From: a virus
Taxonomy: Duplodnaviria > Caudoviricetes
Direction: 5' to 3' (one strand)
Virus record (IMG/VR): IMGVR_UViG_3300031576_001289
Coordinates: 1-34,944 of that record
Length of the DNA stretch: 34,944 bases
The position numbers and the translations under genes were made by a program. Shown piece by piece: positions 1 through 28,358 of the stretch. The stretch's first letter is position 1; every line of letters starts with the position of its first letter. The notes under the pieces are model-generated. The model ran no database searches. It had not been told where the DNA came from and worked only from the letters and a program-made list of their open reading frames with translations.

Positions 1-150
1 CCACCCGGCCTTGATGCCCGCTCCGGCCTCGATGCCCCACCCGGCCTTGATGCCCGCTCCGGCCTCGATGCCCCACCCGGCCTCGATGCCCCACCCGGCC
101 TCGATGCCCGCTCCGGCCTCGATGCCCTCTCCGGCCTTGATGCCCGATCC
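1..150. repeat. 18-bp tandem repeat, about 8 copies, coding
   Basis: Unit GGCATC(G/A)AGGCCGG(G/A)NNG on the minus strand. Confidence 0.9.
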
Positions 151-315
151 GGTGAGCGCGACCACCCTGCCGCGTACCGCGATCGTCTTGCGGAACCTGA
201 CGTAGCCGAGACCAGCGGCGATCTCGATATGGCCGTCGTACACGCTGTCGAGCGCGGTACCGGTGTAGTAGCCGTCGCCGTCGAGGTCGGCCTTGGTGAT
301 CTTGAGCGTGTCCAT
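1..315 (-). CDS. Hexapeptide-repeat (GI[EK]AG[WAE]) protein, truncated at window edge
   Basis: ATG at 315 with upstream GGAGG; my translation MDTLKITKADLDGDGYY...GSGIKAGEGIEAGAGIEAGW...; absent from the ORF track because it has no stop in the window. Confidence 0.85.
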   Translation of the reverse strand, partial: MDTLKITKADLDGDGYYTGTALDSVYDGHIEIAAGLGYVRFRKTIAVRGRVVALTGSGIKAGEGIEAGAGIEAGWGIEAGWGIEAGAGIKAGWGIEAGAGIKAGW

Positions 316-513
316 CTACACTTGACCTCCAGTGCCCACGCCCGCGCTCGAGCCGTCCAAGTTCGAGCGGGCGTCGGCGGTCGATTCCTCATCAGCCGCA
401 GCCCACGTATGAGCCGCGCACAACACGCGCAGCGCGGGCGCGCCGCACAACCAGCAGCGCCACCGGAACTGCTCCGGCCGGTGGTCATGCCGCGGAAGCT
501 CCATGACGCTCAT
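316..513 (-). CDS. Small Cys/His (Zn-finger-like) protein
   Basis: CWLC...C..H; TAG abuts the next ATG. Confidence 0.6.
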   Translation of the reverse strand: MSVMELPRHDHRPEQFRWRCWLCGAPALRVLCAAHTWAAADEESTADARSNLDGSSAGVGTGGQV

Positions 514-1224: not shown

Positions 1225-1515
1225 TCAGGACGCTTCCGGAAAGGGATTCGGCTCCCCGGCCTCCTCGACCAGGAAATACTCGACCGGCTTGCCCGTCGCC
1301 TCGGCGATGCTCGCGAGCAGCACGGCACCGGGCCGGTGCCACGCCTTCTCCAGCTTGATCAGGTGCGACCGGGACGTTCCGACCTGAGCCGCGAGCTTGT
1401 CGTGCGACAGCTCCGCCGACCGCCGCGCCTGCCGGATCCTGCTCCCGATGAGCCTGCCGGGCGCGAGCCGAATCCGCTCCTGCAACCCGTTGAGATCCTG
1501 CAGCGCTTGCGTCAC
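1225..1515 (-). CDS. Cro-like XRE HTH regulator (leaderless GTG start at 1515)
   Basis: IRQARRSAELSHDKLAAQVGTSRSHLIKLEKA; divergent from the repressor. Confidence 0.85.
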   Translation of the reverse strand: MTQALQDLNGLQERIRLAPGRLIGSRIRQARRSAELSHDKLAAQVGTSRSHLIKLEKAWHRPGAVLLASIAEATGKPVEYFLVEEAGEPNPFPEAS

Positions 1516-1548
1516 GTGTCGATCATACGACACGTTGCGAAGCGTGTC
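1514..1548. promoter_or_regulatory. Candidate repressor operators
   Basis: Inverted repeats ACGTGTCG-n6-CGACACGT (1514-1535) and GACACG-n8-CGTGTC (1529-1548); another CGTGTC at 1593-1598. Confidence 0.65.
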
Positions 1549-1550
1549 AA
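1522..1550 (-). promoter_or_regulatory. Consensus housekeeping-sigma promoter for the early lytic operon
   Basis: TTGACA (1550-1545), 17 bp, TATGAT (1527-1522), 6 bp, then GTG. Confidence 0.85.
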
Positions 1551-1598: not shown

Positions 1599-1988
1599 GT
1601 GGCGACGACCGGCGACAACATCGAGAAGGGCAGGCGGATCCGCGAAGCCCGCATAGCCAAGGGGCTGAATCAGAAGGAGGTCGCGGAGCAAATCGGCGCG
1701 AACCCCGCGACGATCAGCAACATCGAGAAGGGACGGATGGGGGTGACGCGCGAGCGCGCGGAGGCCCTCGGCCCGGTGCTCGACGTCGACCCCGATGACC
1801 TCGCCGAGGTCGTCTCGCTGAGTCTTCTCAGGCGACTGGAGTCGATCGAGTTCCTGCTCGGTCTACTCGTCCCCCGGGGATTACTCGAAGATGACGCCGC
1901 GCTTGCACAGGCGGAGAGGATGGTGGCGGAGGCTCAGGCACTTCTTCAGCGGCGAGCGCAAGACGAGACTCCCGAATCAGGATCATGA
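1599..1988 (+). CDS. CI-like XRE immunity repressor
   Basis: IREARIAKGLNQKEVAEQIGANPATISNIEKG; no S24 peptidase domain. Confidence 0.85.
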   Translation: MATTGDNIEKGRRIREARIAKGLNQKEVAEQIGANPATISNIEKGRMGVTRERAEALGPVLDVDPDDLAEVVSLSLLRRLESIEFLLGLLVPRGLLEDDAALAQAERMVAEAQALLQRRAQDETPESGS

Positions 1989-2113: not shown

Positions 2114-2521
2114 ATGCCCAGACCGATCATGCCCCGAATAGCCCTGGCCGTTCTCGCCTCGACCATCGTCGCCGCGCTCGCCGGCTGTGGCGACAACGGG
2201 CAACGTGTCGAGGAAACGCTTACGACCCCGACCGAGGAAACCTCCCCCGTCACGACATCCGCGCCGCCCCAGACCAGCACGTTCGTGAGGGACGTGCGGG
2301 AGAACTATGGAACGCCGGGGTACGAGGTGTCGTGGTGGCAGCATGTGCAGGAAGTCAAGGTGGCGCTCGGCTCCGGTCAAATCTGGACGGAGATCTACCC
2401 CGATGAGGAAGGCCGAGCGCTGGGACGGACCATCTGCCTGGGCGCCTTCAACCTCGGAAGCGGCGTCGACCATGTGCAGGTACTCGGCTCGGATGGCGGG
2501 CCGCTCGCGACCTGCCCGTGA
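2114..2521 (+). CDS. Lipoprotein, superinfection-exclusion candidate
   Basis: AGAGGAG SD before ATG 2114; signal peptide with LAGC lipobox; T/P-rich linker. Confidence 0.8.
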   Translation: MPRPIMPRIALAVLASTIVAALAGCGDNGQRVEETLTTPTEETSPVTTSAPPQTSTFVRDVRENYGTPGYEVSWWQHVQEVKVALGSGQIWTEIYPDEEGRALGRTICLGAFNLGSGVDHVQVLGSDGGPLATCP

Positions 2522-2793
2522 GCTTCGGTGCGGGCGACGCGATCCGCCGCGCGTTGGAGCGACTGGTTGGCCCGCTTCCCGTTGACCCCGCGCGGCCGCT
2601 CACCTGGGATGACGTCGACACGGGCTGGGAGATCATCACCGACGGCTGCTGCCCCGCCTGCGACATGCTGCACGGGCGCGTGTTCGCCACCCAGGCCGCG
2701 CTTGAGCGGGTGATGCCGTTGGGCGGGCCCAACCCGGCGTGCGAACTGGGGGGCGGCTGCGTCTGCAGGACGATGCCGATCCGAGCGGGCTAG
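2518..2793 (+). CDS. Stand-alone MuF-like Cys-rich domain protein
   Basis: GTGA overlap with the lipoprotein; 21/43 ungapped identities to the MuF domain encoded at 23577-23705. Confidence 0.8.
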   Translation: MSFGAGDAIRRALERLVGPLPVDPARPLTWDDVDTGWEIITDGCCPACDMLHGRVFATQAALERVMPLGGPNPACELGGGCVCRTMPIRAG

Positions 2794-3035
2794 CCGGGCG
2801 GTTCGATGAAGCTGGCGGAGTCGCGGTTGCCGCCAGCGGGCTTCGCGGCGACAGCGGTGAGGAAGCTGAGCAGCCCGGCCGCAGCGCCGGCCTTCCAGCA
2901 CGTCGACCAGTTGATCGCGTCCCAGCCGCCCTCGCCGATGATCCCCGTCAGGTACAGCAGGATCGCTCCGGCGGCTGCCTGGACGGTTGTGCGAACGGTC
3001 CGCTCGACAGTGTCAAGCCAGAATCCCCAGGTCAT
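2790..3035 (-). CDS. Holin, r1t-like
   Basis: FWLDTVERTVRTTVQ plus two TM segments; AAAGGAG SD before ATG 3035. Confidence 0.85.
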   Translation of the reverse strand: MTWGFWLDTVERTVRTTVQAAAGAILLYLTGIIGEGGWDAINWSTCWKAGAAAGLLSFLTAVAAKPAGGNRDSASFIEPPG

Positions 3036-3280
3036 TGTGTGTCTCCTTTCGCGCATCTGTTTTCGCCGAGGCCGGCCAGGATCAGGTTGAAGCGGGCGCG
3101 GAAGATGGCGGCCGACGGATCATCGGTTTCCTCGCGGATCCGCACCGACTCGCACACGAACAGGATCAGCGCGTCCCGCTCCCGCTCCGCCTCGCCGGTG
3201 GCCCCGACGATCGAGACTGCGGCGACCGCGAGCGCGGCAGCCATCACAAGCGCGGCGGCGATCACGGCGGCGTACCTCAC
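3032..3280 (-). CDS. Membrane protein of the lysis cassette
   Basis: N-terminal TM, two Cys; GTGA/ATGA overlaps. Confidence 0.7.
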   Translation of the reverse strand: MRYAAVIAAALVMAAALAVAAVSIVGATGEAERERDALILFVCESVRIREETDDPSAAIFRARFNLILAGLGENRCAKGDTQ

Positions 3281-6058: not shown

Positions 6059-7342
6059 CTAGTAGACGAGCTGGGGGCCGACGGTGGCGCCGTTAGCGGC
6101 GATCTGGGAGGTGCCGATCACCATCGGCGTGTACGCCGGCTTCTTCGACAGCACCCAGCCGGTGGAGTGTCGTCGGCCGCGTTGCGCGATCTCGTGGCGG
6201 ACGCGCTCGATGTGGTAGACGCCGGCGGTGCCGCCCTCGGCTTCGCTGACGGAGACGACGTCGGAGAGGTCGCGGCCGAGCGCCTGCCGCAGCGTCGAGG
6301 GGAGCCGGTTGTCGATCTGGAAGTCGCGCAGCGGCCGGCGTGGTTTCGCGGTCTGGGAGAGGACGTAGTTGGCGAGCGCGTCGGTCTGCGAGTCGGAGAT
6401 CAGGTAGGGGGTTTCGAGGTTGAGGCCTTCGTGGTAGCCGAACTTGTTGATCGAGTCGCCGTCGGTGGCGGTCGCCTGGTAGCCGGTCTGAGTGCGCTTC
6501 ACGCGGACGACGTTCTCGATCAGCCGGTGGTCGATCGTGGGGCTGACGCGGGTCATGTCGTCGGTGATTGTGGCGGCGACGGGGCGCAACGCACGGCTTT
6601 GGCGGCTTTCGAAGGTGGCGACGCCGGCGGCGGAGATGTAGAAGACGCCGCGTTCGGCGTCGAGGAGGTCGCGGGCGATCTGCAGCCCGGTTTTGGTGCC
6701 GTCGGCTGAGAAGCCGGGGAGGTTGTCGCCGGCGTCGAGGCTGCGGGCTTGCGGGTCAATCCAGCCGACCGCGTCGAGCAGCTTCCCTAGTGCGGCGCCG
6801 GTGCTGGTCGCGCCGGTCGCGGCGATGGTCGGCTTGACAGAGTCGAGCCAGTAGAAGAGGTCGACGGCGCGGATCTCGGCGACGGCTTTGCCGCGGCCCA
6901 ATGGCGTCCACGTGATGCTGTCGACGTGCCCGTAGAAGATCGGGTAGGTGACGCCCTGGTAGACGCCGCGCAGCCTGAGCGGCTGCTTGCGATATTCGAG
7001 CAGCCCGTAGAGGGGGCTTGAGGCGTTGTCTGGGTTGAGGAGGCCGTCGCGGTCTCGGACTGTGACGGTGCAGACGCCGGCCTGGGTGGTGTCGAGGTTG
7101 GTGGCGCGGCCGCGTTCGGCGACGCCATGCTGGAACCGTGCGGAGAGGTTGTCGTGGGGGCCGGTGAAGGCGGTGTCGAAGGGGCTGATGCCGAACCGGT
7201 CGGTGCCGCCGATGGTGGAGAAGCCGATCGTGAAGATGCCGGCCACGTACGCCTGCCACGCCACCTCGAGCGTGTAGGCGGCGAGCGCGACACGGTTGGA
7301 CGCGGCGGCGGTGCTGCGGCGGAGGAAGACGACGAGAGGCAT
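6059..7342 (-). CDS. Baseplate hub-like minor tail protein
   Basis: RGR...AGVCTVTVRDRDGLLNPDN, IFYGHV, ERGVFYISAAG..FESR, YHIERVRHEI. Confidence 0.75.
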   Translation of the reverse strand: MPLVVFLRRSTAAASNRVALAAYTLEVAWQAYVAGIFTIGFSTIGGTDRFGISPFDTAFTGPHDNLSARFQHGVAERGRATNLDTTQAGVCTVTVRDRDGLLNPDNASSPLYGLLEYRKQPLRLRGVYQGVTYPIFYGHVDSITWTPLGRGKAVAEIRAVDLFYWLDSVKPTIAATGATSTGAALGKLLDAVGWIDPQARSLDAGDNLPGFSADGTKTGLQIARDLLDAERGVFYISAAGVATFESRQSRALRPVAATITDDMTRVSPTIDHRLIENVVRVKRTQTGYQATATDGDSINKFGYHEGLNLETPYLISDSQTDALANYVLSQTAKPRRPLRDFQIDNRLPSTLRQALGRDLSDVVSVSEAEGGTAGVYHIERVRHEIAQRGRRHSTGWVLSKKPAYTPMVIGTSQIAANGATVGPQLVY

Positions 7343-7690
7343 CTACGTGTTGAGCTGGAAGCTGTCGCCGCGCCAGACCCCGGGCGCGGCCGACGTCAGC
7401 GGGCCGGGCACCGACACGACCAGGTCGAAGCCGTCGAAGGCCGGGCCCAGCTCGATCAGCGCAGGCTCGGTCTTCAGCGCCAGCCAGGCCGCCACATGGT
7501 GCGTCATGCGCCTACCGGGACGGGTCGCCAGCGTCGGACGCGGCCCCGTGCCGGCACGGTACGTCTGGAGCTTTGACCACTCGCCCGGGTTCTGCACCCG
7601 CCACGTCTCATCCTGGGAACGCTTCCCCGTCGGCCCCGTCGGCTGCATGAACTCAGCCCATTCGTTGTCGAGCTCGGTCAATGCGGTCAT
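7343..7690 (-). CDS. Hypothetical protein
   Basis: ATGA overlap at 7687-7690; TAG abuts the next ATG. Confidence 0.65.
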   Translation of the reverse strand: MTALTELDNEWAEFMQPTGPTGKRSQDETWRVQNPGEWSKLQTYRAGTGPRPTLATRPGRRMTHHVAAWLALKTEPALIELGPAFDGFDLVVSVPGPLTSAAPGVWRGDSFQLNT

Positions 7691-12035: not shown

Positions 12036-15000
12036 CTACAGGCTGATCACGCGGTCGAGCGCCGCCTTCAGCTCGGCCGCCCAGGCTTCGGCGATGCGGT
12101 AGTCGGGCTGGCCGATGAGATGGCCGATGTGCACCTGGACGCCGCCTGCGAGGCCGCGGCCGGCCGCGAGTTGCTCGAGCGCGCGGGTGAGGTGCCGGTC
12201 GATCACCGTCTCGCCCGGTGAGACCCTCGCGAGCATCGTGTCTTCGCGGCCCATCCACACACCGGGCACTTTGCCGCCGTGCGCGAACCCGATCGGGCCG
12301 CCGCCCTTCGTGGCGATGTTGCCCATGCCGGCGTTCACCGGCGGCCCGCCACCATCGGAGGTGTTGCCGGTGGCGTCCGCGAGGGCGGCGATCGCAGCCG
12401 CCAGCTCCGCGATCGCCTTGCGCACCTCGTCGAGGGACTGCTGGAACGCGGCCGCGAACATGGCGCCGATCAGCGCCCCCGCCTCCGCCAGGTCGAGGCC
12501 GTACTCGGCCAGCAAAGCAAGCAGCTGCGCCTGCGCCTCCTCGGCGGTCAGCTTCTCGGTCAGCAGCCCCTGCTGGATCTCGATCAGCCGCTGCTGGAAC
12601 TTCTCGCGCAGCAGCTCCCGCTCGACACGTATCCGCTCCCGCTCGGCCTCGAGCGCTTCGTCGGCTGCGCGGCGCTCCGCGTCCGCCTGTTTCTGCAACC
12701 CGGCTTCTGTCTCGTCGAGCATGAACTCCTGCAGGTCCTGCTGCGCCTGCGCGAGCTCCTCGAGGCGCCGCATCTGCTCTTCCGGCGTTTCCCCTGGCGG
12801 CGCCTGAGAGAGCTGCGCGATCCGCCGCTCGATCTCCGCGCGTCTGCGGGCGCGGCCGGCCGCGTCACGTCCTTCCCTGAACTCGCGCAGCCTGCGCTCG
12901 CCAGGTGTTTCCTCGCCAGCGCCGATCTCGAAGCCGAAGCGGGCGACCTTGGCGCGGGCGTTCCGGATCAGCCGGTCGGTTTGCGCGTCGAACACCCTGA
13001 GCGCCTTGTCGGTCAGCCGCTGGAACGCCTCCCCGAACGCGTCGCGTTTCGCGGCCACGTCGTCGCGGAGCCGATCGAGCGCTCGTTCTACGGTGTCGCG
13101 GACGCGGTCCATGTCGCGCTTGATCCTGTCGAGCTGCTTCTCGGTGACGACATGCCCGAGCTCCTCCTGCAGCCGCTTCAGCCTTGGCATCAGCTTTTCG
13201 CGGATCTCGTCGGGCAGGTTCGCGATCCGGTCGGCCAGCTGGCGTGCCATCCGTCTGGCGCCGGGCAGCTGGTCGCGGAGGCTCATGGCGTCAAACCACG
13301 CGTCCTGCAGCTTCGACAGCTTCTTGCGGAGCTTCGCGAGTTCCTTGTCGGTGTCGACGTTGCCGAGCTCGGCGAGCAGGGCGGCGAGCGCCTTGCGGAA
13401 CTTCGCCTTGAGCTCCGGCGACGCGAGCCGGCCGATCATCCGCTTCATCGCGTTGAGCGTCGCGCGAGGGCCTTTCAGCTCGTCACGATCGAACTTGTCG
13501 GTGTCCGTGCCTGTGCCTGGGCCGACGAGATCGGCCGCGTCACCGAAGGAGACGCCGGCGCCAGCCGCTCCGGTCTCGTACGCCGCTGGGCTCGGAGTGG
13601 GCGCTGTCTTGGTGGTGCCGCCGGTCTTGGCGAGGTCGACGGGGTTGCCGCGGTCGGTCGCGATGTGCACGTGCGTGCCGGCGCCGGCGTTGACAGCGAA
13701 GCCGATGATCGCGCCCTTGCCGAAGAACACGCCGGCGCGGCGCGCGGTCGACCGCATGTGCGTGATGAAGTAGGAGGTGCCGGACTTCCCCAGGTAGGTG
13801 ATCTGGTCGCCGAACACGATCTTCGTGCCGACCCTCGTCGGCGTCGCGGGGCCTTCCCTGAACTGGACGACCCGCATCGGCTCCGGGGCGAGCACCGGCG
13901 TGCCAGGCCGCACCTTCACGTCGACGGCGTTCCGTGACTGCCAGTCAGCCTGGTCGTGCGTGCCCTGGCCCGGCGTGCCGATGATGCCCTGGTTCTGGCC
14001 GGCCGGGATCGGCGCCGTCAGCCCGCCCGGCAACTGCGTCGCCGTAGCGTCCGGCTTCAGCCACCAGGCGTCGGGACCCGGCGCCTTCTTGAAGACGCTC
14101 TCCCAGACCGAGTTCCACTTCTTCCCGAAGCCGGTGTCGGAGAGCGCCCCCTTGAACGTGAAGCCGACGACGACGCTGATCGTCCACGGGTTGCGGCTCA
14201 ACGCCTTCAGCGCCCCGAGCAGACCTCCTGAGGCTCCCGCCGCGGCCGCGCCCCCGACCAGGCCGCCGCCGATCAGCGCCGCACGCAGCTTCGCGACCCG
14301 CGACAGCATCACGGCGCCGAACGCGAGCTCGCCCGCCTGCACCATGTCGATGCTGAGCGCGCCCGTCAGCGGCGAGAGAGCTTTCTTCACGTTGCCGATC
14401 GCCCTCGCGAAGCCCTGTGCGAACCCGGCCGCCGACCGGAACGCGTCCGCGAAGCCGTCACGATGCTCAACCAGCCAGCTGCCGAGGTTCCGCAGCGCCG
14501 GCACAGCGTGCTCCTCCAGCCACATCGAGAGCCGCTGCACGCCAGCGGCGAACTCCGGCTTCGACGACCAATCCACGATCGCCTGCATCCCCCGAGTGGC
14601 CAGTTTGAAGAACGGCTCCATCGCCGTGCCGGACGCCTGGTTGAAAGTGTCCTTGATCGTCGACAGCAGACCCGCGAACGAGTGCGACTGCGCCTCCGTC
14701 AGCCCCTTGAAGCGACGCTCCGTGTTCGACACGAACGCGGCCATGAACGCCTCCGAGGAGACGGCGCCCTTCGACACCAGCTCCATCGCCCGAGGTACCG
14801 ACACGCCGATCTCGCGCGCCAAGTCCCGCCAGGAGAAGGTGCCGGCCTCGTTCAGCTGCATCATCTCCTCGGCCATCACGCGGCCCTTCGACTGGATCTG
14901 CGTGATCGCGCGCACCGTCGACTCGAGCGCCTCCGGGCTGCCGCCCATCGCCGACACCGCCTCGCCGACCGCCCCCAGGATCGGAATGATCTTCTTCGCC

Positions 15001-15416
15001 TCGAACCCGACCGACAGCAGCCGCTGCGAGAGCGGGATCAGGTCCTTGAACTCGAACGGCGTCTTCGCCGCGAACGCCGCCAGCTCACCCAGGAACCGTC
15101 GGGCCTTCTCCCCCGACCCGAGCATCGTCTTGAACGCGATCTCGGCCCGCTGCTTCAAGTCGTTGAAGCGGAAGCCGGCGAAGACGATCGACCCGGCCAG
15201 CCCGGCAGCGCCGAGCCCGCCGATCGTGACCGCGGCCCTGGCCGCCACGCCCCCAATCGCAAGCAGGCTCGACCGTGCCGACCGGCCAAACGAGACGACG
15301 CGGCCCTCGTTGCGGCGCGCCGCAGTGCCGACCCGGTCGATCGCATGCTCCGTCTCCGCGCCCGCCCTGCGCGCGCCCCGCGACACTCCGTCGAATCTCA
15401 CCTCGACCCTAGACAT
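12036..15416 (-). CDS. Tape measure protein with internal M23-peptidase-like domain
   Basis: AFKTMLGS...FAAKTPFE...QIQSKGRVMAEEMMQL tape-measure domain; AVD...PGTPVLAP...THM...GTHVH; coiled coils. Confidence 0.95.
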   Translation of the reverse strand: MSRVEVRFDGVSRGARRAGAETEHAIDRVGTAARRNEGRVVSFGRSARSSLLAIGGVAARAAVTIGGLGAAGLAGSIVFAGFRFNDLKQRAEIAFKTMLGSGEKARRFLGELAAFAAKTPFEFKDLIPLSQRLLSVGFEAKKIIPILGAVGEAVSAMGGSPEALESTVRAITQIQSKGRVMAEEMMQLNEAGTFSWRDLAREIGVSVPRAMELVSKGAVSSEAFMAAFVSNTERRFKGLTEAQSHSFAGLLSTIKDTFNQASGTAMEPFFKLATRGMQAIVDWSSKPEFAAGVQRLSMWLEEHAVPALRNLGSWLVEHRDGFADAFRSAAGFAQGFARAIGNVKKALSPLTGALSIDMVQAGELAFGAVMLSRVAKLRAALIGGGLVGGAAAAGASGGLLGALKALSRNPWTISVVVGFTFKGALSDTGFGKKWNSVWESVFKKAPGPDAWWLKPDATATQLPGGLTAPIPAGQNQGIIGTPGQGTHDQADWQSRNAVDVKVRPGTPVLAPEPMRVVQFREGPATPTRVGTKIVFGDQITYLGKSGTSYFITHMRSTARRAGVFFGKGAIIGFAVNAGAGTHVHIATDRGNPVDLAKTGGTTKTAPTPSPAAYETGAAGAGVSFGDAADLVGPGTGTDTDKFDRDELKGPRATLNAMKRMIGRLASPELKAKFRKALAALLAELGNVDTDKELAKLRKKLSKLQDAWFDAMSLRDQLPGARRMARQLADRIANLPDEIREKLMPRLKRLQEELGHVVTEKQLDRIKRDMDRVRDTVERALDRLRDDVAAKRDAFGEAFQRLTDKALRVFDAQTDRLIRNARAKVARFGFEIGAGEETPGERRLREFREGRDAAGRARRRAEIERRIAQLSQAPPGETPEEQMRRLEELAQAQQDLQEFMLDETEAGLQKQADAERRAADEALEAERERIRVERELLREKFQQRLIEIQQGLLTEKLTAEEAQAQLLALLAEYGLDLAEAGALIGAMFAAAFQQSLDEVRKAIAELAAAIAALADATGNTSDGGGPPVNAGMGNIATKGGGPIGFAHGGKVPGVWMGREDTMLARVSPGETVIDRHLTRALEQLAAGRGLAGGVQVHIGHLIGQPDYRIAEAWAAELKAALDRVISL

Positions 15417-21259: not shown

Positions 21260-21299
21260 TAGAATGATGGGGCGGCGCCGTTGCTACCCGGCCCGCCCC
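21260..21299 (+). promoter_or_regulatory. -10 box and leader hairpin of the HNH gene
   Basis: TAGAAT at 21260-21265; hairpin GGGGCGG-C-GCCG-n8-CGGC-CCGCCCC at 21269-21299. Confidence 0.5.
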
Positions 21300-21323
21300 G
21301 CGACACCGAGAAACGAGGTCTCG

Positions 21324-21839
21324 ATGCAAGAGCAGCGTACGCCTACCGGCCCCAACCCCTCCGGCTACTGCATGTGCGGATGCGGCCGGCTAGCACCGGT
21401 CCAGAAGTACACCGACATGCGCCGCGGTGTCCCCAGAGGACAGCCGCAACGGTTCATCCTCGGCCACGTCAACGGCGGCCGCGACTTCTCCGATGAGCAC
21501 AGGCGGAACATCGCCGAAGCTCGTCGCCGCCAAACGATCACGCCCGACACGCGTCGGAAAATCAGCATCGCGCTGGGTGGCACGGGAGAGCCTGGGTACG
21601 TCGCGATTCACAGCAGGCTCAGACGACAACACCCGAAGTCAGGCATCTGCGAGGAGTGCGGCACCGAGGGGTCGACCGAGTACGCGTTCCTGCGCCACCC
21701 CGAGCCTCACACGTCAGACCGCGAGGACTACAAGGAGCTGTGTGTACCTTGCCACCGGCGTTTGGACGGCTGGTTGCAGGCCCACCCGAACAAGGTGAAG
21801 CGCCTCAAGAGGAAAAGCGCTCCACAGTCTCCAACCTAA
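21324..21839 (+). CDS. HNH-like homing endonuclease with NUMOD3-like repeats
   Basis: CMCGCG, FSDEHRRNIA / TPDTRRKIS, YVAIH, CEEC, LCVPCHRRLD; GAGGT SD. Confidence 0.8.
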   Translation: MQEQRTPTGPNPSGYCMCGCGRLAPVQKYTDMRRGVPRGQPQRFILGHVNGGRDFSDEHRRNIAEARRRQTITPDTRRKISIALGGTGEPGYVAIHSRLRRQHPKSGICEECGTEGSTEYAFLRHPEPHTSDREDYKELCVPCHRRLDGWLQAHPNKVKRLKRKSAPQSPT

Positions 21840-22960: not shown

Positions 22961-23056
22961 CTACTTCGGCGACGGGCTAGGCGGCTTCGGCCTCTTTACG
23001 AGTTCGCCGGGCTTCCAGGTGATCCGCTCACCCAGGGATGACTGTCGCGAAGACAT
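22961..23056 (-). CDS. 31-aa peptide MSSRQSSLGERITWKPGELVKRPKPPSPSPK, candidate ART immunity
   Basis: ATG overlaps the last codons of the ART gene; fills the gap up to the next motif. Confidence 0.5.
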   Translation of the reverse strand: MSSRQSSLGERITWKPGELVKRPKPPSPSPK

Positions 23057-24293
23057 ACCTAGTCACGATGCTAGCACGGCCCGGGTATGAGGTCACGCGT
23101 TCCTCGACGCGATCGATCCGCAACGCAACCCCGCGGCCGAGCAAGATCTCACGCTCATTACGCACAGTCGGCGCGCCGGCCGCGTTGAGATCTAGCGCCT
23201 TTGTGCCGGCCGGAAGTGTGATCTCCCACACGTCTCCGTACGGGCCCGCCCACGACTCGGGCAGTGCGTTTGTCGCGGATGTGCTCATGAACCCGAGGTC
23301 GTCGAACACGTCGCCTGCCTCCACTTCGACCGGGGTGGAGAAGGCGCGCCACACGAGCCGCTCGGAGCGCAGCGGCGACGCCTTGTCGATCGCTCGGTCG
23401 ACGCGGTCGACCACGTCATCGATGTCGGCGCGGGCGGTTGGGGAGAGCTGGAGCAGCTGACGCAGGTAGCCGTTGATCTGCTCGTATTCGGAGCTGGTGT
23501 ACCTGCCGATCGCCACTTTCTCTGAATCGGTTAGGTCAGCGGTCAGCCGCGCTCGAGGTTCAGCCGCGGCATTGACGGGGACGGCGCGGCAGCGGCAGCG
23601 GCCGCCGCCCAAGCATCGAGGGTTGGGCCCGAAGTTCGGCAGCACCCGGAACAGCTCCTCAAGCGTCGCGTAACGGGTGCCGTTCAGCGGGCGGCAGACG
23701 TCGCAGGTGCCTCCGTCCAGTATCGCCGTGTACTCCCACTCGGCGATCAAGTCGGAGACGGTGTCGAACGTCTCCGCAAGCCCGCCGATCAGCGCCGTCG
23801 ACACCATCCGCGAGGCGATGTCTCGCGCGCCGGGCACGGCAAGCGCCGCGCGCACGAGCGCGGACTGCGCGGCGCCGCCAACGTCGAGGAAGACGAGCTC
23901 GTCCTCGATCCGGATCTGCATGCCGGTGAGGCCGCGTCGCAGATAGTCGTCGAGATCGCCCGGCCCCGCCGGGCGCGAGTCGACGTACTGGCGGCCGGCG
24001 ACGTCATAGCCCAGCCGCTCAAGCTCGTTCCACCCCTCGACGCGGCCGAGCTCCGCCAGCTGCTCGAGCGGCTTGCGCATGGCGTCGGTCACGAGCAGCT
24101 CGAGCCGGTGCTGGGATCCGCGCGCGCGGATCCCACGGCTGATCTCGACATGGATCGCCCGCTCCAGCCTGTTCTTGGCGCCGGCGAGCGCCTGGTCGAG
24201 CAGCGCGACGTCGATCGCCTGCTCGGCTTCGCTGAGCTGCCGCCCGACGAGCCGCTCAACGTACGAGCGAGGCTCGGTGAGGGTGGCGGTCAC
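23028..24293 (-). CDS. MuF head morphogenesis protein fused to a VIP2/C3-like ADP-ribosyltransferase
   Basis: GTGA-coupled start 24293; MuF DGGTCDVC...CRCR; ART YT...Y..INGYLR, VWR, FMSTS, ERE. Confidence 0.9.
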   Translation of the reverse strand: MTATLTEPRSYVERLVGRQLSEAEQAIDVALLDQALAGAKNRLERAIHVEISRGIRARGSQHRLELLVTDAMRKPLEQLAELGRVEGWNELERLGYDVAGRQYVDSRPAGPGDLDDYLRRGLTGMQIRIEDELVFLDVGGAAQSALVRAALAVPGARDIASRMVSTALIGGLAETFDTVSDLIAEWEYTAILDGGTCDVCRPLNGTRYATLEELFRVLPNFGPNPRCLGGGRCRCRAVPVNAAAEPRARLTADLTDSEKVAIGRYTSSEYEQINGYLRQLLQLSPTARADIDDVVDRVDRAIDKASPLRSERLVWRAFSTPVEVEAGDVFDDLGFMSTSATNALPESWAGPYGDVWEITLPAGTKALDLNAAGAPTVRNEREILLGRGVALRIDRVEERVTSYPGRASIVTRYVFATVIPG

Positions 24294-24904
24294 GCGAGGG
24301 TGACATCGGCGAGCACACTGATGCGTCCCCGCCCGACCGTCGTCTTGGTGCCGTCGGGCTCCTCGAGCTGCACGTCGCACTCCAGCCGCGACGTCTCGGT
24401 GAGCGCGGCGGTGTCAGCCGGGTTGACGACGACGGTGGCGAAGCTCTTCCCCGTCGAGGCGGGGCTGTTGAGGGTGATCCCGCCGGGGCCGCCGCCGACG
24501 CCCGCGGTCTTCGCGATCACGGCCGCGGCGTCCGTGTCGGCGAGCGAGCGTTTCGCGGTCAGCCACATCTTCACGTTCGCGAGTGACAGGTCGATGTTGC
24601 GGATTGGCACCAGCCTCCCGGTCGCCCCGCCGGCTGTGGTGCCGGCGGAGCCGAGCAGCGTCACCCGCGTCGTCGAGGGGACCGACTGCACGACCCATTC
24701 GCCGTTCGCCTGCGCGTTGCCCTGATGGGCGTCGACGCGGCAGCGGTCTCCCACCAGGAGGCCGTGGGCGGCGGCGGTCGTGATCTCGATCGGCGTTGCG
24801 GCCGTGGACGAGGAGATCTCGAGCGACGGGTATTCGCGCATGACCGGGCCGACCTCGATCGTGGCGCGGTCGCCGCGGACTAGTTCGATGTCGACAACGT
24901 TCAT
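24290..24904 (-). CDS. Virion structural protein (BppU-like with inserted beta domain)
   Basis: IELVRGD...VVVNPADT...CDVQL...GRISV, with an ITTAAAHGLLVGD...NGEWVV insert. Confidence 0.65.
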   Translation of the reverse strand: MNVVDIELVRGDRATIEVGPVMREYPSLEISSSTAATPIEITTAAAHGLLVGDRCRVDAHQGNAQANGEWVVQSVPSTTRVTLLGSAGTTAGGATGRLVPIRNIDLSLANVKMWLTAKRSLADTDAAAVIAKTAGVGGGPGGITLNSPASTGKSFATVVVNPADTAALTETSRLECDVQLEEPDGTKTTVGRGRISVLADVTLA

Positions 24905-26304
24905 CTCAGCTCGGCTCCCGCTCTACTGTCGGCGTGCCTGACCTGGGCGCGGCCGGCGTGCATCCTGAATGAGACGGCCACGATCTCGCCGTCGCCGGCC
25001 TGGTAGCCGCCGAGGATGTCGCCGGCGGTCGTGATCGTGAACGTCCCGGTGAGCGACGTCGAGCCGAACGTCGTGCGCAGCCCAGCCGTCTGCGCGGCGA
25101 ACGTCGCGGTGAGAGACGTGGAGCCGAACGTCTTACGCGTCCCGACTGTCGCGGTGGTGACGGTGACGGTGACGGAGCTGGCCCCGAACGTCTTACGCGT
25201 CCCCGCAGTCGTGACGGCGGCGGTCTCGGTGAGCGACGCAGCCCCGAAGGTCGAGCGTGTCCCGGCCGTTGCTGCGGCCACGGTGACGGTGAGGCTGGCG
25301 GCGCCGAACACCTGGCGAGCCCCGGCCGTGACGATGCCGACGGCCGTCGTCAGGCTCGCCGCGCCGAAGGTGGTGCGGGTGCCGGCCGTCTGGATCCCGG
25401 CCGCCGTCGTCCGCGACACCTGCCCGAACGTTGCCCGGGTGCCAGCCGTCGTGACCTGCGCCGTCGTCGTCAACGACGTGGCGGCGGTGGCAGTCCGTAT
25501 CCCGTTCGTGGTGATCTGCGCCGTCACCGTCAGCGACGTCGCACCGAACACCTTGCGCACGCCCGCGGTCGTGATCGAGGCCGTGGTTGTCTGCGACGCC
25601 TGCCCGAAGGTGGTGCGTGTCCCGGCCACGGTGATGCCCGCCGTCGTCGTCCGTGACACGACACCCGTGAACGTCTCCACTTCCGACACGCACAGCGCGA
25701 CGAACGCGAGGTCGTCGGAGGTGAGCGTCGACCAGCCGATCGTGTGATCCGCAGAGTCGACGGTTGTCTCCCGGCATGTCTGCGCGTAGAACGCGCCCAG
25801 GTCCTCGGTGGGGCCGAGCGTGTTCCCGGTGGCGAGGGTGCCGCCTGGCGCGCCCCCGCCTCCGTACATGGCGCACAGCGAGATGCCGGTGCGGTCGCCC
25901 TTCTGCAAGGTCACCGTCGGGTTGGCCGCGTTCTCGCTGATCGAGTCGAAGTCGATCACTTTCGTGTTGTCGGCGGCGGTGAGCGTCGTGGACACGCCCT
26001 GCAGGTCGTCGGTTGTGGCCGACGCCAGGTCGACGCTGACGGTCTGCGCCCCGCTGGGGATGCCGGCCCCGAGGAACCACAGCTCGGCGGCGCCCGGCTC
26101 GGTCGCGGTATCGGTGGCGCGTACAATCCGGGTCATCGCGACGGCGCCGTAGGTGACCGAGACGACATGGTCGGTTGACGACGTGCCGTGGACGATCGAG
26201 ACGATCACGGCGCGGGGGGTGCCGGCCGGCGTGTGCGTCCACGTCCACGGGTCGGAGGTGCCGATGCGGACGTTCTCGACTTCGGCGTCGAAAGCAACGG
26301 CCAC
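24901..26304 (-). CDS. Fibre-like protein with Thr-rich 20-aa repeats
   Basis: About 10 copies of AGTRxTFGxxSLTxTxxxTT. Confidence 0.75.
   Translation of the reverse strand: MAVAFDAEVENVRIGTSDPWTWTHTPAGTPRAVIVSIVHGTSSTDHVVSVTYGAVAMTRIVRATDTATEPGAAELWFLGAGIPSGAQTVSVDLASATTDDLQGVSTTLTAADNTKVIDFDSISENAANPTVTLQKGDRTGISLCAMYGGGGAPGGTLATGNTLGPTEDLGAFYAQTCRETTVDSADHTIGWSTLTSDDLAFVALCVSEVETFTGVVSRTTTAGITVAGTRTTFGQASQTTTASITTAGVRKVFGATSLTVTAQITTNGIRTATAATSLTTTAQVTTAGTRATFGQVSRTTAAGIQTAGTRTTFGAASLTTAVGIVTAGARQVFGAASLTVTVAAATAGTRSTFGAASLTETAAVTTAGTRKTFGASSVTVTVTTATVGTRKTFGSTSLTATFAAQTAGLRTTFGSTSLTGTFTITTAGDILGGYQAGDGEIVAVSFRMHAGRAQVRHADSRAGAELR
24920..24932 (-). promoter_or_regulatory. Late motif copy 9 (variant, leadered)
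   Basis: CCGACAGTAGAGC followed by GGGAG SD and ATG 24904. Confidence 0.6.
25020..25670 (-). repeat. Degenerate 60-bp coding repeat
   Basis: 20-aa periodicity in the translation. Confidence 0.75.
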
Positions 26305-26316
26305 CGGGCCGCCCCC

Positions 26317-26709
26317 CTACGCCGCTACGGGCGTCAGGTTGAGGTCGAGGTCGCCGATCGCGATCGAGAAGTTGTCGCCCACAGCGACCGTCCTCGCGAC
26401 CGCCAGGTCGTCGGAGCCGAGGAACGTGCCAGCCGTCGACGCATCCCAGAACGACACGTGCGAATACGTCTCCGCGTTCGGCACGTTCGTCCAATCCAGA
26501 GCCGCCGAGTTCGTGATCGCCCCGGCCGAGGCGGCCGACATCGTCGCCTGCTTCCGCGTCGTGTTCGCCGCAGCCGCCGTGGTCCCAGCCGCCCCCGGAT
26601 CCGCGGTGTGCAGCTTGACCCAGAACGCGGCCGGCTGCGTCCACGCCACGTTGCGGCACAACGCGTCCAAGATCGAGTTGCAGATTGCCGATGCGAGTCC
26701 GACTGCCAT
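26317..26709 (-). CDS. Small virion fibre-base protein
   Basis: FWVKLHTADPGAAGT...SHVSFWDASTAGTFL. Confidence 0.8.
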   Translation of the reverse strand: MAVGLASAICNSILDALCRNVAWTQPAAFWVKLHTADPGAAGTTAAAANTTRKQATMSAASAGAITNSAALDWTNVPNAETYSHVSFWDASTAGTFLGSDDLAVARTVAVGDNFSIAIGDLDLNLTPVAA

Positions 26710-26725: not shown

Positions 26726-26898
26726 ACGGCTGCGTCGTCTTGCTCCGCTCGGAACTCCCGCTCCGCCATCCGAGCAAGCCACAGCCTCCGCATCAGCGAC
26801 CGGCCGCGTGTGCGGAGCCGATGGCGGTTGCGGTTGCGGTTCACGTTCACTGGGTGCCGCCAGCCGCTCCGCTTGGCGTGGCCGCGCGAGCGCCTCAT
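26719..26898 (-). CDS. 59-aa Arg-rich peptide
   Basis: ATGA overlap with the portal stop; ends at the TAG inside the motif. Confidence 0.45.
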   Translation of the reverse strand: MRRSRGHAKRSGWRHPVNVNRNRNRHRLRTRGRSLMRRLWLARMAEREFRAEQDDAAVR

Positions 26899-28358
26899 TC
26901 GGCGAGGCCGTCGCCTTCGCGGCCCACCCGGTTGCGTGCCACCCCGACGTCGTCGGGCAGCGCGTTCACCACCAGGGCGAGCGTCTCCTCGTCGAGGCCC
27001 GCCTGGGCGAGCAGCTGCCGGAGCCGCTCCCGGTCGACACCCATCGAGTCGAGGTCGTTCGGCAACTTGCCGAGGCCGAGCTCCTCGCGCACGTCGTCCT
27101 GCGCGGCGCGGTCGTTGAGCATGAACCCGGCGGCGTCGAGGATCCCGACCGCCTTCGCGACCGTGTCGATGTCACGCGGCTTGATCTTCGACACCCTCAG
27201 CACCGGGCAGCGGCGCTCGGCCGCTTCCACACCGAAGTTGACTTGGACGATGCGGCGGATCACCTGCCGCATCCGCTCATACCGCAGATCCTCGGCCAAC
27301 GCCTCGCAGGCGAGGTAGAACGGGTTCGCCTGCGTCTCCGCCGTCGCCCGCGCCCCAGTCTGACCGAGCCCCTGACGGGAGAAGTGCTGCAACCCGGCCT
27401 CCGCGATCTGCTCCGAACACCACCGAAGGAGCGGCACCGGATCCGCCAGCGACGCGGCGGCCGACATGATCTCGGCGTCCCACTCCGAGTCTTCCTTGCC
27501 GCCGCCGGGCGGCACCGGGAACCGCAGGTAGGCGCGCTGGTGGCCTCGCAACGAACGGCCGATCTCCTTCGCCACCTCCACCCCTTCGGGCGTGTCCGGG
27601 TGGAACAGCTTCGGGATCCCCATCGCGAACCGGTCCCAACCGATGCCGGCATGAATGATCAGGAACTTCTTCAGCGTCCACGCCCCCCACGCCGGCCGCA
27701 GCAGCGAGACGCCGTCCCAGTGGTTGCCCTCCCGCTCGAACGTCATGTAGCTGACCTTGTCGCCGGGCATCGGCTTCACGTTCGGCAGGTTCTGCGTCAC
27801 CCGCTTCGGGGTGCCGTCGTCGGCCCACTCGAACCGGTCGATCGACACCGTCGGCCGCAAAGCGAGCTTCGCGAGCGGGCGCACGAGATGCTCGTCGCCG
27901 TCTGCGTCCCGCCAGACGCGGGCGTCGCCCCACACGAGCTCCTCGACGCAGGCGCCGAACGGCAGCATCGACAGCCCCTGCTCGAGCTGCTTCGGCCAGC
28001 TGAGGTTGAGCCAGCCGAGGTGCCCGCCCAACCCGAGGTTCTCGGCCACGAGATCGCGGATCGCTTTCGACACCGGGTCGCGTTCGTCGGCGGGGTCGAG
28101 CAACCAGCGGGCCGAGCGGACGGTCAGGGTGGGCATGAACAGCAGGCTCTTCACGGTCGCGTCCGTCTTGCGCATTTCGTCGTAGACGCGATGCTTGGCG
28201 CGGCCTGTCAGCTCCGGGTTGATGTCGGGGCCGCCGCCGAGCAGCCCCTTCAGCCACTCCTCGCCGTCGGCTCCGGCCTCACCGCGGTCGGGGCCGGTGA
28301 GATCGCCGACCGGCAGGCTGGCGTAGGAGCGGTCGAACAGGGTGGCTCGGAACCTCAC
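26895..28358 (-). CDS. Portal protein (Mu gp29/DUF935-like)
   Basis: YDEMRKTDATV, MLPFGACVEELVW, GVSLLRPAW..W..K, DRFAMGIP. Confidence 0.9.
   Translation of the reverse strand: MRFRATLFDRSYASLPVGDLTGPDRGEAGADGEEWLKGLLGGGPDINPELTGRAKHRVYDEMRKTDATVKSLLFMPTLTVRSARWLLDPADERDPVSKAIRDLVAENLGLGGHLGWLNLSWPKQLEQGLSMLPFGACVEELVWGDARVWRDADGDEHLVRPLAKLALRPTVSIDRFEWADDGTPKRVTQNLPNVKPMPGDKVSYMTFEREGNHWDGVSLLRPAWGAWTLKKFLIIHAGIGWDRFAMGIPKLFHPDTPEGVEVAKEIGRSLRGHQRAYLRFPVPPGGGKEDSEWDAEIMSAAASLADPVPLLRWCSEQIAEAGLQHFSRQGLGQTGARATAETQANPFYLACEALAEDLRYERMRQVIRRIVQVNFGVEAAERRCPVLRVSKIKPRDIDTVAKAVGILDAAGFMLNDRAAQDDVREELGLGKLPNDLDSMGVDRERLRQLLAQAGLDEETLALVVNALPDDVGVARNRVGREGDGLAE

Follow-up and report, generated by a model that had tools for sequence, protein, structure and literature searches.

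The window, the whole stretch of 34,944 nucleotides analysed here, is a provirus record of 34.9 kb that is 38% complete and has a GC content of 69.6%. Its minus strand carries the late genes (terminase, portal, MuF-ART, capsid, tape measure and lysis genes), the last of which encodes a holin (2790..3056, minus strand; Pfam Phage_r1t_holin, E 2.7e-9). Facing this late operon is a short plus-strand block, consisting of a helix-turn-helix (HTH) gene, a gene for a predicted lipoprotein (2114..2521, with an LAGC lipobox read from the sequence) and a gene for a 91-residue protein (2518..2793), here called mini-MuF, which was recognised from its open reading frame (ORF), its homology and its codon use. 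The TGA stop codon of the lipoprotein gene overlaps the GTG start codon of mini-MuF, and the holin gene converges on mini-MuF with an overlap of 4 nt. The preliminary description of this DNA had placed the gene on the repressor strand, coupled to the lipoprotein, and both points hold for the strand of the putative repressor.

We infer that the genes beside this block form a switch of the cro/cI type, with the plus-strand HTH protein as the repressor. This XRE-type protein (1599..1988; Pfam HTH_3, E 2e-11) matches PHROG repressor families, and its putative role as a cI-like lysogeny repressor is read from the divergent layout, in which a second HTH gene, putatively cro-like, occupies the minus strand (1225..1533). 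Between the two HTH genes lies an operator-like inverted repeat with 8-nt arms and a 6-nt spacer (1514..1535), a third half-site of which is found at the start of the repressor gene (1592-1599), and the identical inverted-repeat layout is present in a Gaiella occulta prophage (G001; L003 6502-6525 and 6578-6586). A near-consensus promoter-like site (11/12; 1522..1550, minus strand) faces the cro-like gene, with one such site found against 0.1 expected in shuffles, and the promoter search found none on the repressor strand. The listed start of the cro-like gene at 1533 falls within the promoter-like site, and the GTG at 1515, probably the true start, sits 7 nt past the -10 box, which suggests a leaderless transcript. 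At 1-316 (minus strand), a gene running off the left end of the window encodes tandem hexapeptide repeats with a weak Pfam Collagen match, and in the related phage G014 a protein built on another short repeat is encoded at the corresponding side of the switch (L017 ~6700-7430).

The full-length MuF head protein of the phage (MuF-ART, 421 aa, 23028..24293, minus strand) carries a C-terminal ADP-ribosyltransferase (ART) domain (PF03496, E 1.9e-21) with R-S-ExE residues, which we take to be the ART motif, in place, and matches the MuF models below their cut-offs (PF04233, E 0.0017; TIGR01641, E 4e-5). Portal, the known partner of MuF-type proteins, is encoded at 26895..28358 (minus strand; Pfam Portal_Mu, E 1.5e-32). 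Three genes lie between portal and muf (24290-26709, minus strand), including one for a 467-residue Thr/Ala-rich repeat protein, and in other relatives portal and muf are likewise several kb apart. Elsewhere in the late region, a Cys/His-rich HNH-like gene runs counter to the operon inside the head module (21264-21839, plus strand; PHROG 25114, E 1e-4), and part of the interior of the tape measure (12036-15416, minus strand) resembles an M23 peptidase, with a match below cut-off (E 5e-5).

Mini-MuF is composed of a short helix, a Trp-acidic turn and a Cys module (CxxC...P..GP...C....CxC), and, judging by the Cys pattern, probably binds zinc. The stretch of MuF-ART to which it had been aligned in the preliminary description (23577..23705, minus strand) is, given the MuF start at 24293, correctly placed and corresponds to the paralogous MuF Cys module; the ungapped alignment has 21 identities in 43 positions, including five common Cys, compared to a maximum of 14 and a mean of 10.3 in 300 shuffles. 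A pairwise BLASTP comparison of the two proteins gave 28/66 identities (E 6e-13), and hhalign aligned mini-MuF with the MuF of the phage group at 98.9% (E 2e-17) over the C-terminal ~100 residues of the MuF domain, the profile alignment making the entire mini protein homologous to MuF residues ~135-243. At the DNA level, the two genes are identical in 107 of 216 columns (~50%), as expected for an old paralogue rather than a recent copy. A pentapeptide, ERLVG, does occur near both N-termini, as had been reported, and a common 5-mer in these positions arose in 0.34% of 5000 shuffles. However, homologues lack it, the profile alignment sets the mini N-terminus on MuF residues ~133-160 and not on the MuF N-terminus, and the third positions of all five codons differ between the two genes, so that the ERLVG match is best read as a coincidence and not as a sign of homology. 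Searches of Pfam, PHROG, NCBIfam and PADLOC gave zero matches for the protein itself, in agreement with the earlier statement that it has no toxin domain; PADLOC (library of 2023, E 0.1) gave no match for three minis, and a comparison with 50,697 annotated phage records did not yield a counterpart of mini-MuF. Neither a signal peptide nor a membrane segment is predicted. DNA mimicry was considered and rejected: the minis are acidic (pI 4.05-6.1), but the net charge of their core is like that of MuF (-3.9 vs -3.2).

The gene recurs in the identical slot of related phages, so that solo homologues near lysogeny genes, the key test proposed in the preliminary description, do exist. The slot is the final one on the repressor strand and faces the lysis genes, and among the eight records that include the lysis-side junction it holds a mini gene in four (the window, G001, G014 and G1015), while the mini is absent at an intact junction in G003, G008, G011 and G1016; G013 was left out of this count, as no repressor cassette was seen in the 14 kb inspected. 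The upstream neighbour is unrelated in each carrier, although the mini start lies 0-33 nt from its stop throughout. In G001, the mini follows an HsdR-N-like gene and a different lipoprotein gene, in G014 it follows Excalibur-domain and SNase genes, and in G1015, which was recovered via a scan anchored on an unrelated tail gene and bears a second mini subfamily, it follows a predicted membrane-anchored gene, the contig ending before the repressor. In all four carriers, the full muf gene is ~17-21 kb away on the opposite strand; the window mini is ~24 kb from the portal gene, and the minis of G001, G014 and G1015 are far from the head genes too. G011 and G1015 have visibly similar MuFs, yet only G1015 has a mini, which indicates that the mini behaves as an accessory gene, and the cassettes also contain an HsdR-N-like gene, a nuclease and secreted proteins, as in accessory slots. 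Position and patchy presence fit an accessory gene in a cassette that is probably expressed in the lysogen; a look through the sequencing runs for RNA gave none.

The nearest named carrier is Gaiella occulta, a named species with one of the carriers as its prophage. Host genomes were sampled in sets of 301, 401 and 401, with few candidates scored per genome, and minis were found only in the G001 host and on G014 prophage contigs. Single-protein locus scans gave no new loci, scans with the second subfamily gave nothing or G1015 again only, and a metagenome scan returned the window's own contig only. The genomic context was read for three of the 15 other minis, and some members lie on contigs of 1-3 kb. 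In the G. occulta cassette, the HsdR-N-like gene (L003 7167-7967, plus strand) encodes a predicted nuclease domain, with matches below cut-offs, and is a candidate defence gene.

When 1.84 billion representatives were searched with the mini query, 32 matches were obtained, of which, with the query itself set aside, the top five were proteins of 66-130 aa that outscored the phage's own MuF; a profile search added five members. The stand-alone family comprises 15 other members of 66-132 aa, including two genes read from loci, the loci numbering at least those counted here. Two proteins, P0017 (a repeat protein) and P0036 (which clusters with a 294-aa MuF), were excluded from the minis. When 15 minis and 41 MuFs were placed in one tree, the minis fell on one side of a branch (support 99/98, with the bootstrap short of convergence), and a core-only tree of 50 columns and 14 minis agreed (SH-aLRT 95). 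L006 and L010 were dropped from the trees as duplicates, P0058 is absent from the core-only tree and the column counts, and the G1015 mini was left out of every tree and omega estimate. The minis thus appear to be an old family with one ancient origin. Since the family is old and set apart from all MuFs in the tree, the gene is not, as the preliminary description had it, a copy of the phage's own MuF, and the separate clade together with the DNA identity of ~50% likewise led us to reject the ideas that the gene arose by duplication in recent times or serves muf as a recombination cassette.

The two groups also differ in their conserved residues. An R-C-R-C-R pattern is present in 41/41 MuFs, including all 22 that were retrieved with the mini query, and its first two Arg occur in none of the 14 mini representatives, an exception being the cluster member P0043, which has an Arg between the last two Cys. 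The minis have kept Trp, Gly, Pro and most of the Cys positions, and are missing a Gly, present in all 41 MuFs, that lies two positions beyond the third Cys. The loop bearing the invariant Asp of MuF is shortened in the minis, the retention of the Asp itself depending on the alignment; one mini subfamily has an extra Cys and another has lost one. Mini-MuF has no counterpart of MuF residues 1-~135, to which the invariant N-terminal motif belongs, and several minis lack even the N-terminal helix, indicating that the conserved unit is a module of ~60 residues. PF04233 matches three of the 15 family members weakly (best E 0.0027), and mini-MuF itself has no HMM match. The G001 mini seems to start at a CTG that overlaps the upstream TGA (L003 8313-8316), in which case its public 86-aa annotation is probably ~12 residues short.

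Mini-MuF is under purifying selection. Its frame has a GC3 of 0.90 and the top codon score of the six frames, this score being 0.07, compared to 0.12-0.39 for 16 of the 17 training ORFs (the 17th had been entered out of frame). Over the mini genes of the window, G001 and G014, omega was 0.14 (GY) and 0.24 (MGK), with 2dlnL values of 47.9 and 30.5 against omega = 1; for three divergent GC-rich genes these values are rough, though all are below 1, and the neutral dN/dS that had been named as grounds for abandoning a function was not found. The corresponding MuF region gave 0.05 and 0.13 and terS 0.18 and 0.29 (GY and MGK), so that the mini omega is about twice that of the MuF region, and simple pairwise counting gave 0.50-0.63 for the mini genes.

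The AlphaFold model of mini-MuF (pLDDT 82) has the strand-helix-strand order of the MuF module and is without the long helices of MuF, those of residues 11-135 being absent. The nearest predicted viral structures were mostly MuF or minor capsid proteins, all with E >= 0.06. Among solved structures, no match to the mini was found by sequence, Foldseek or VIA-align (best Z 3.1), nor, by Foldseek, to the MuF model, the ART half of which is of low confidence. In the ESM Atlas, several clusters of 70-110 aa, mostly viral, have similar features, some of them with PF04233 on 11-20% of their members, a lead suggesting that small MuF-like proteins may be widespread. A complex prediction of mini-MuF, the MuF core and zinc scored 0.00 against a mark of 0.32, and is uninformative in either direction.

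Mini-MuF is therefore a real, selected and undescribed family in a conserved slot. The preliminary description knew of no comparable system, and our literature search, mostly of open-access text, concurs: no description of stand-alone muf genes in repressor cassettes was found in the open full-text literature, and short solo genes might appear in the supplementary MuF tables of PMC5576092. According to the accessible text of Jamet et al. 2017 (PMC5576092), MuF is encoded by about one third of tailed phages and the function of the domain was unknown to these authors. Mini-MuF shares a homologous C-terminal Cys module with minor head (ejection) proteins such as MuF, SPP1 gp7 and 80alpha gp44. 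In contrast to these proteins, the minis have 66-132 aa, lack the helical N-terminal part and the invariant arginines, coexist with a full-length muf gene, and lie on the opposite strand behind the repressor instead of in the packaging module near portal and terminase.

From these features a decoy role of mini-MuF is plausible, and the explanation that we tentatively prefer is that it is made in the lysogen to disable the MuF of superinfecting relatives. As the last gene of the putative repressor cassette, mini-MuF would likely be produced in the lysogen, and, having kept the fold, it could engage the incoming MuF or the partner of MuF and yet be unable to perform the job of MuF. With the basic conserved residues and the helical body missing, the simplest action would be competition with the incoming MuF, which may leave the incoming DNA less protected and poorly circularised. 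The prophage itself would be spared on induction if the cassette is then shut off and the late MuF is in excess. The model for this is the MuF-type protein gp44 of 80alpha, which is described as dimeric, as entering the cell together with the injected genome, and as binding blunt DNA ends and protecting them (PMC7290940); its loading needs the portal crown (PMC12889711). Fragments of gp44 fail to complement, and in the portions of that study available to us wild-type phage was never plated on fragment-expressing strains (PMC7290940). As the window MuF matches PF04233 and TIGR01641 below cut-off only, the gp44 role is transferred to it by inference. A further point against the transfer is that the DNA-binding part of gp44 is a basic C-terminal tail (PMC7290940). 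The broader proposition is that, in temperate phages, pieces of the injected head protein have more than once been converted into dominant-negative decoys, made by the lysogen, against the MuF pilot protein of incoming relatives, whatever its cargo. This would be a repressor-independent superinfection exclusion acting at genome-end protection, and seems to us less likely than not.

If superinfection is indeed blocked, this would be a phage-versus-phage defence made from a structural gene of the phage itself, and a decoy would offer a way into the function of the MuF Cys module. In either case, the stand-alone fragment is a ready tool for finding the partner of this module, and as a natural fragment with the Cys scaffold and without the invariant arginines it indicates residues that matter. 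A small lysogen-expressed prophage gene acting against a virion-related step has a precedent in Tab of a Pseudomonas prophage, which acts on the assembly of tails and is opposed by a dedicated counter-defence, anti-Tab (PMC10884400); no homology to the mini is implied, and no counter-gene to the mini was identified. The minis share their genomic slot, their patchy presence and the lipoprotein neighbour with another class of genes. These are the superinfection-exclusion morons found in repressor operons, for example those for Ltp-type lipoproteins, from which mini-MuF differs in having no signal peptide or membrane segment and in deriving from the phage's own structural gene family. If it acts at all, mini-MuF would act in the manner of a prophage defence moron.

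A first alternative, which we regard as unlikely, is that mini-MuF is a decoy that serves its own prophage by engaging a host protein that would otherwise recognise the MuF Cys module, be it a sensor, a nuclease or a recombination factor. The prophage would thereby be protected when induced, or its choice between lysis and lysogeny would be tuned. Its placement with the switch genes and its patchy presence would suit this, as would the delivery of MuF into the host cytoplasm and its proposed influence on the lysogeny decision (PMC5576092). However, a noisy literature search turned up no host defence system that senses MuF, and in the experiments covered by the accessible text on gp44 this protein did not bind CI (PMC7290940). 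Similarly improbable, in our view, is that the MuF module was borrowed as a scaffold for a metal-binding protein with a function unrelated to the partners of MuF. The lost MuF-invariant Arg and Gly and the shortened loop, the single ancient origin and the gain and loss of Cys in different subfamilies speak for such a protein, and the loss of invariant surface residues would fit an unrelated new function as well as it fits a decoy, but the slot behind the repressor has been maintained in both subfamilies.

Less likely again is an assembly-stage poison comparable to Tab, which would block the place of MuF on the portal while a relative replicates, leaving its progeny without MuF and poorly infectious. 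SPP1 gp7 is reported to bind portal (PMC5576092), gp44 loading requires the portal crown (PMC12889711) and Tab illustrates the use of assembly blocks by prophages (PMC10884400). Against this, gp44 without its first 32 residues fails to complement (PMC7290940) and mini-MuF has none of MuF residues 1-~135, the invariant N-terminal motif included; the lack of the long helical part of MuF makes a poisoning of portal-based head assembly somewhat less likely.

The preliminary description had also considered neutralisation of MuF-ART. The window MuF-ART is an ordinary member of the MuF polymorphic toxins (PMC5576092; Bxa, Bsi and BAH in PMC11699363), and relatives swap the cargo; the gap of 86 nt after its gene is too little for a usual immunity gene, which could suggest that mini-MuF is an immunity protein against a MuF cargo, cognate or generic. 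A link between the mini and cargo-bearing MuFs was suggested by the first six records, and such MuFs are present in three of the four carriers compared to none of the three non-carriers with a known MuF, but this split has a p value of about 0.11 and is confounded by kinship, and the link failed in G1015, its sole independent test, with a 260-aa MuF without cargo. The cargo is an ART in the window, a peptidase-like domain with a HEAGH motif in G001 and DUF6883 in G014. Since the other three carriers have another cargo or none, the idea of cognate neutralisation is not supported, and the target, if any, would be the core function of MuF. Moreover, G001 and G014 have a small ORF (63-65 aa) of their own directly behind muf, where the known MuF immunity genes adjoin the toxin, the characterised ones acting on the toxin domain or its product, according to the accessible parts of PMC5576092 and PMC11699363. 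The mini, by comparison, is not directly downstream of the muf toxin gene (20 kb distant, on the other strand), has its homology with the carrier domain and occurs regardless of the cargo, and we consider immunity very improbable.

A decaying duplicate or a functionless shadow ORF, for which the codon score below that of the core genes and the higher omega might be invoked, is largely refuted by the intact frames and starts in four divergent phages, the omega well below 1 and the conserved Cys, Trp, Gly and Pro.

A few minor features of these loci were also recorded. In the window, a 31-codon ORF (22961-23056, minus strand) overlaps the end of the MuF-ART gene and may be a minimal immunity peptide or a chance ORF. 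A gene of 72-78 aa adjoins the holin gene at L003 8763-8981, L017 10192-10410 and L055 8829-9065 (all minus strand), with 60% identity between G001 and G014, a similar-looking version in G003 and no Pfam match; it was not detected in the window. In G1015, two related genes with an HxK motif (L061 13895-14533 and L065 620-1477, both plus strand), which we take to be phospholipase D-like, are positioned one before muf and one after the holin gene.
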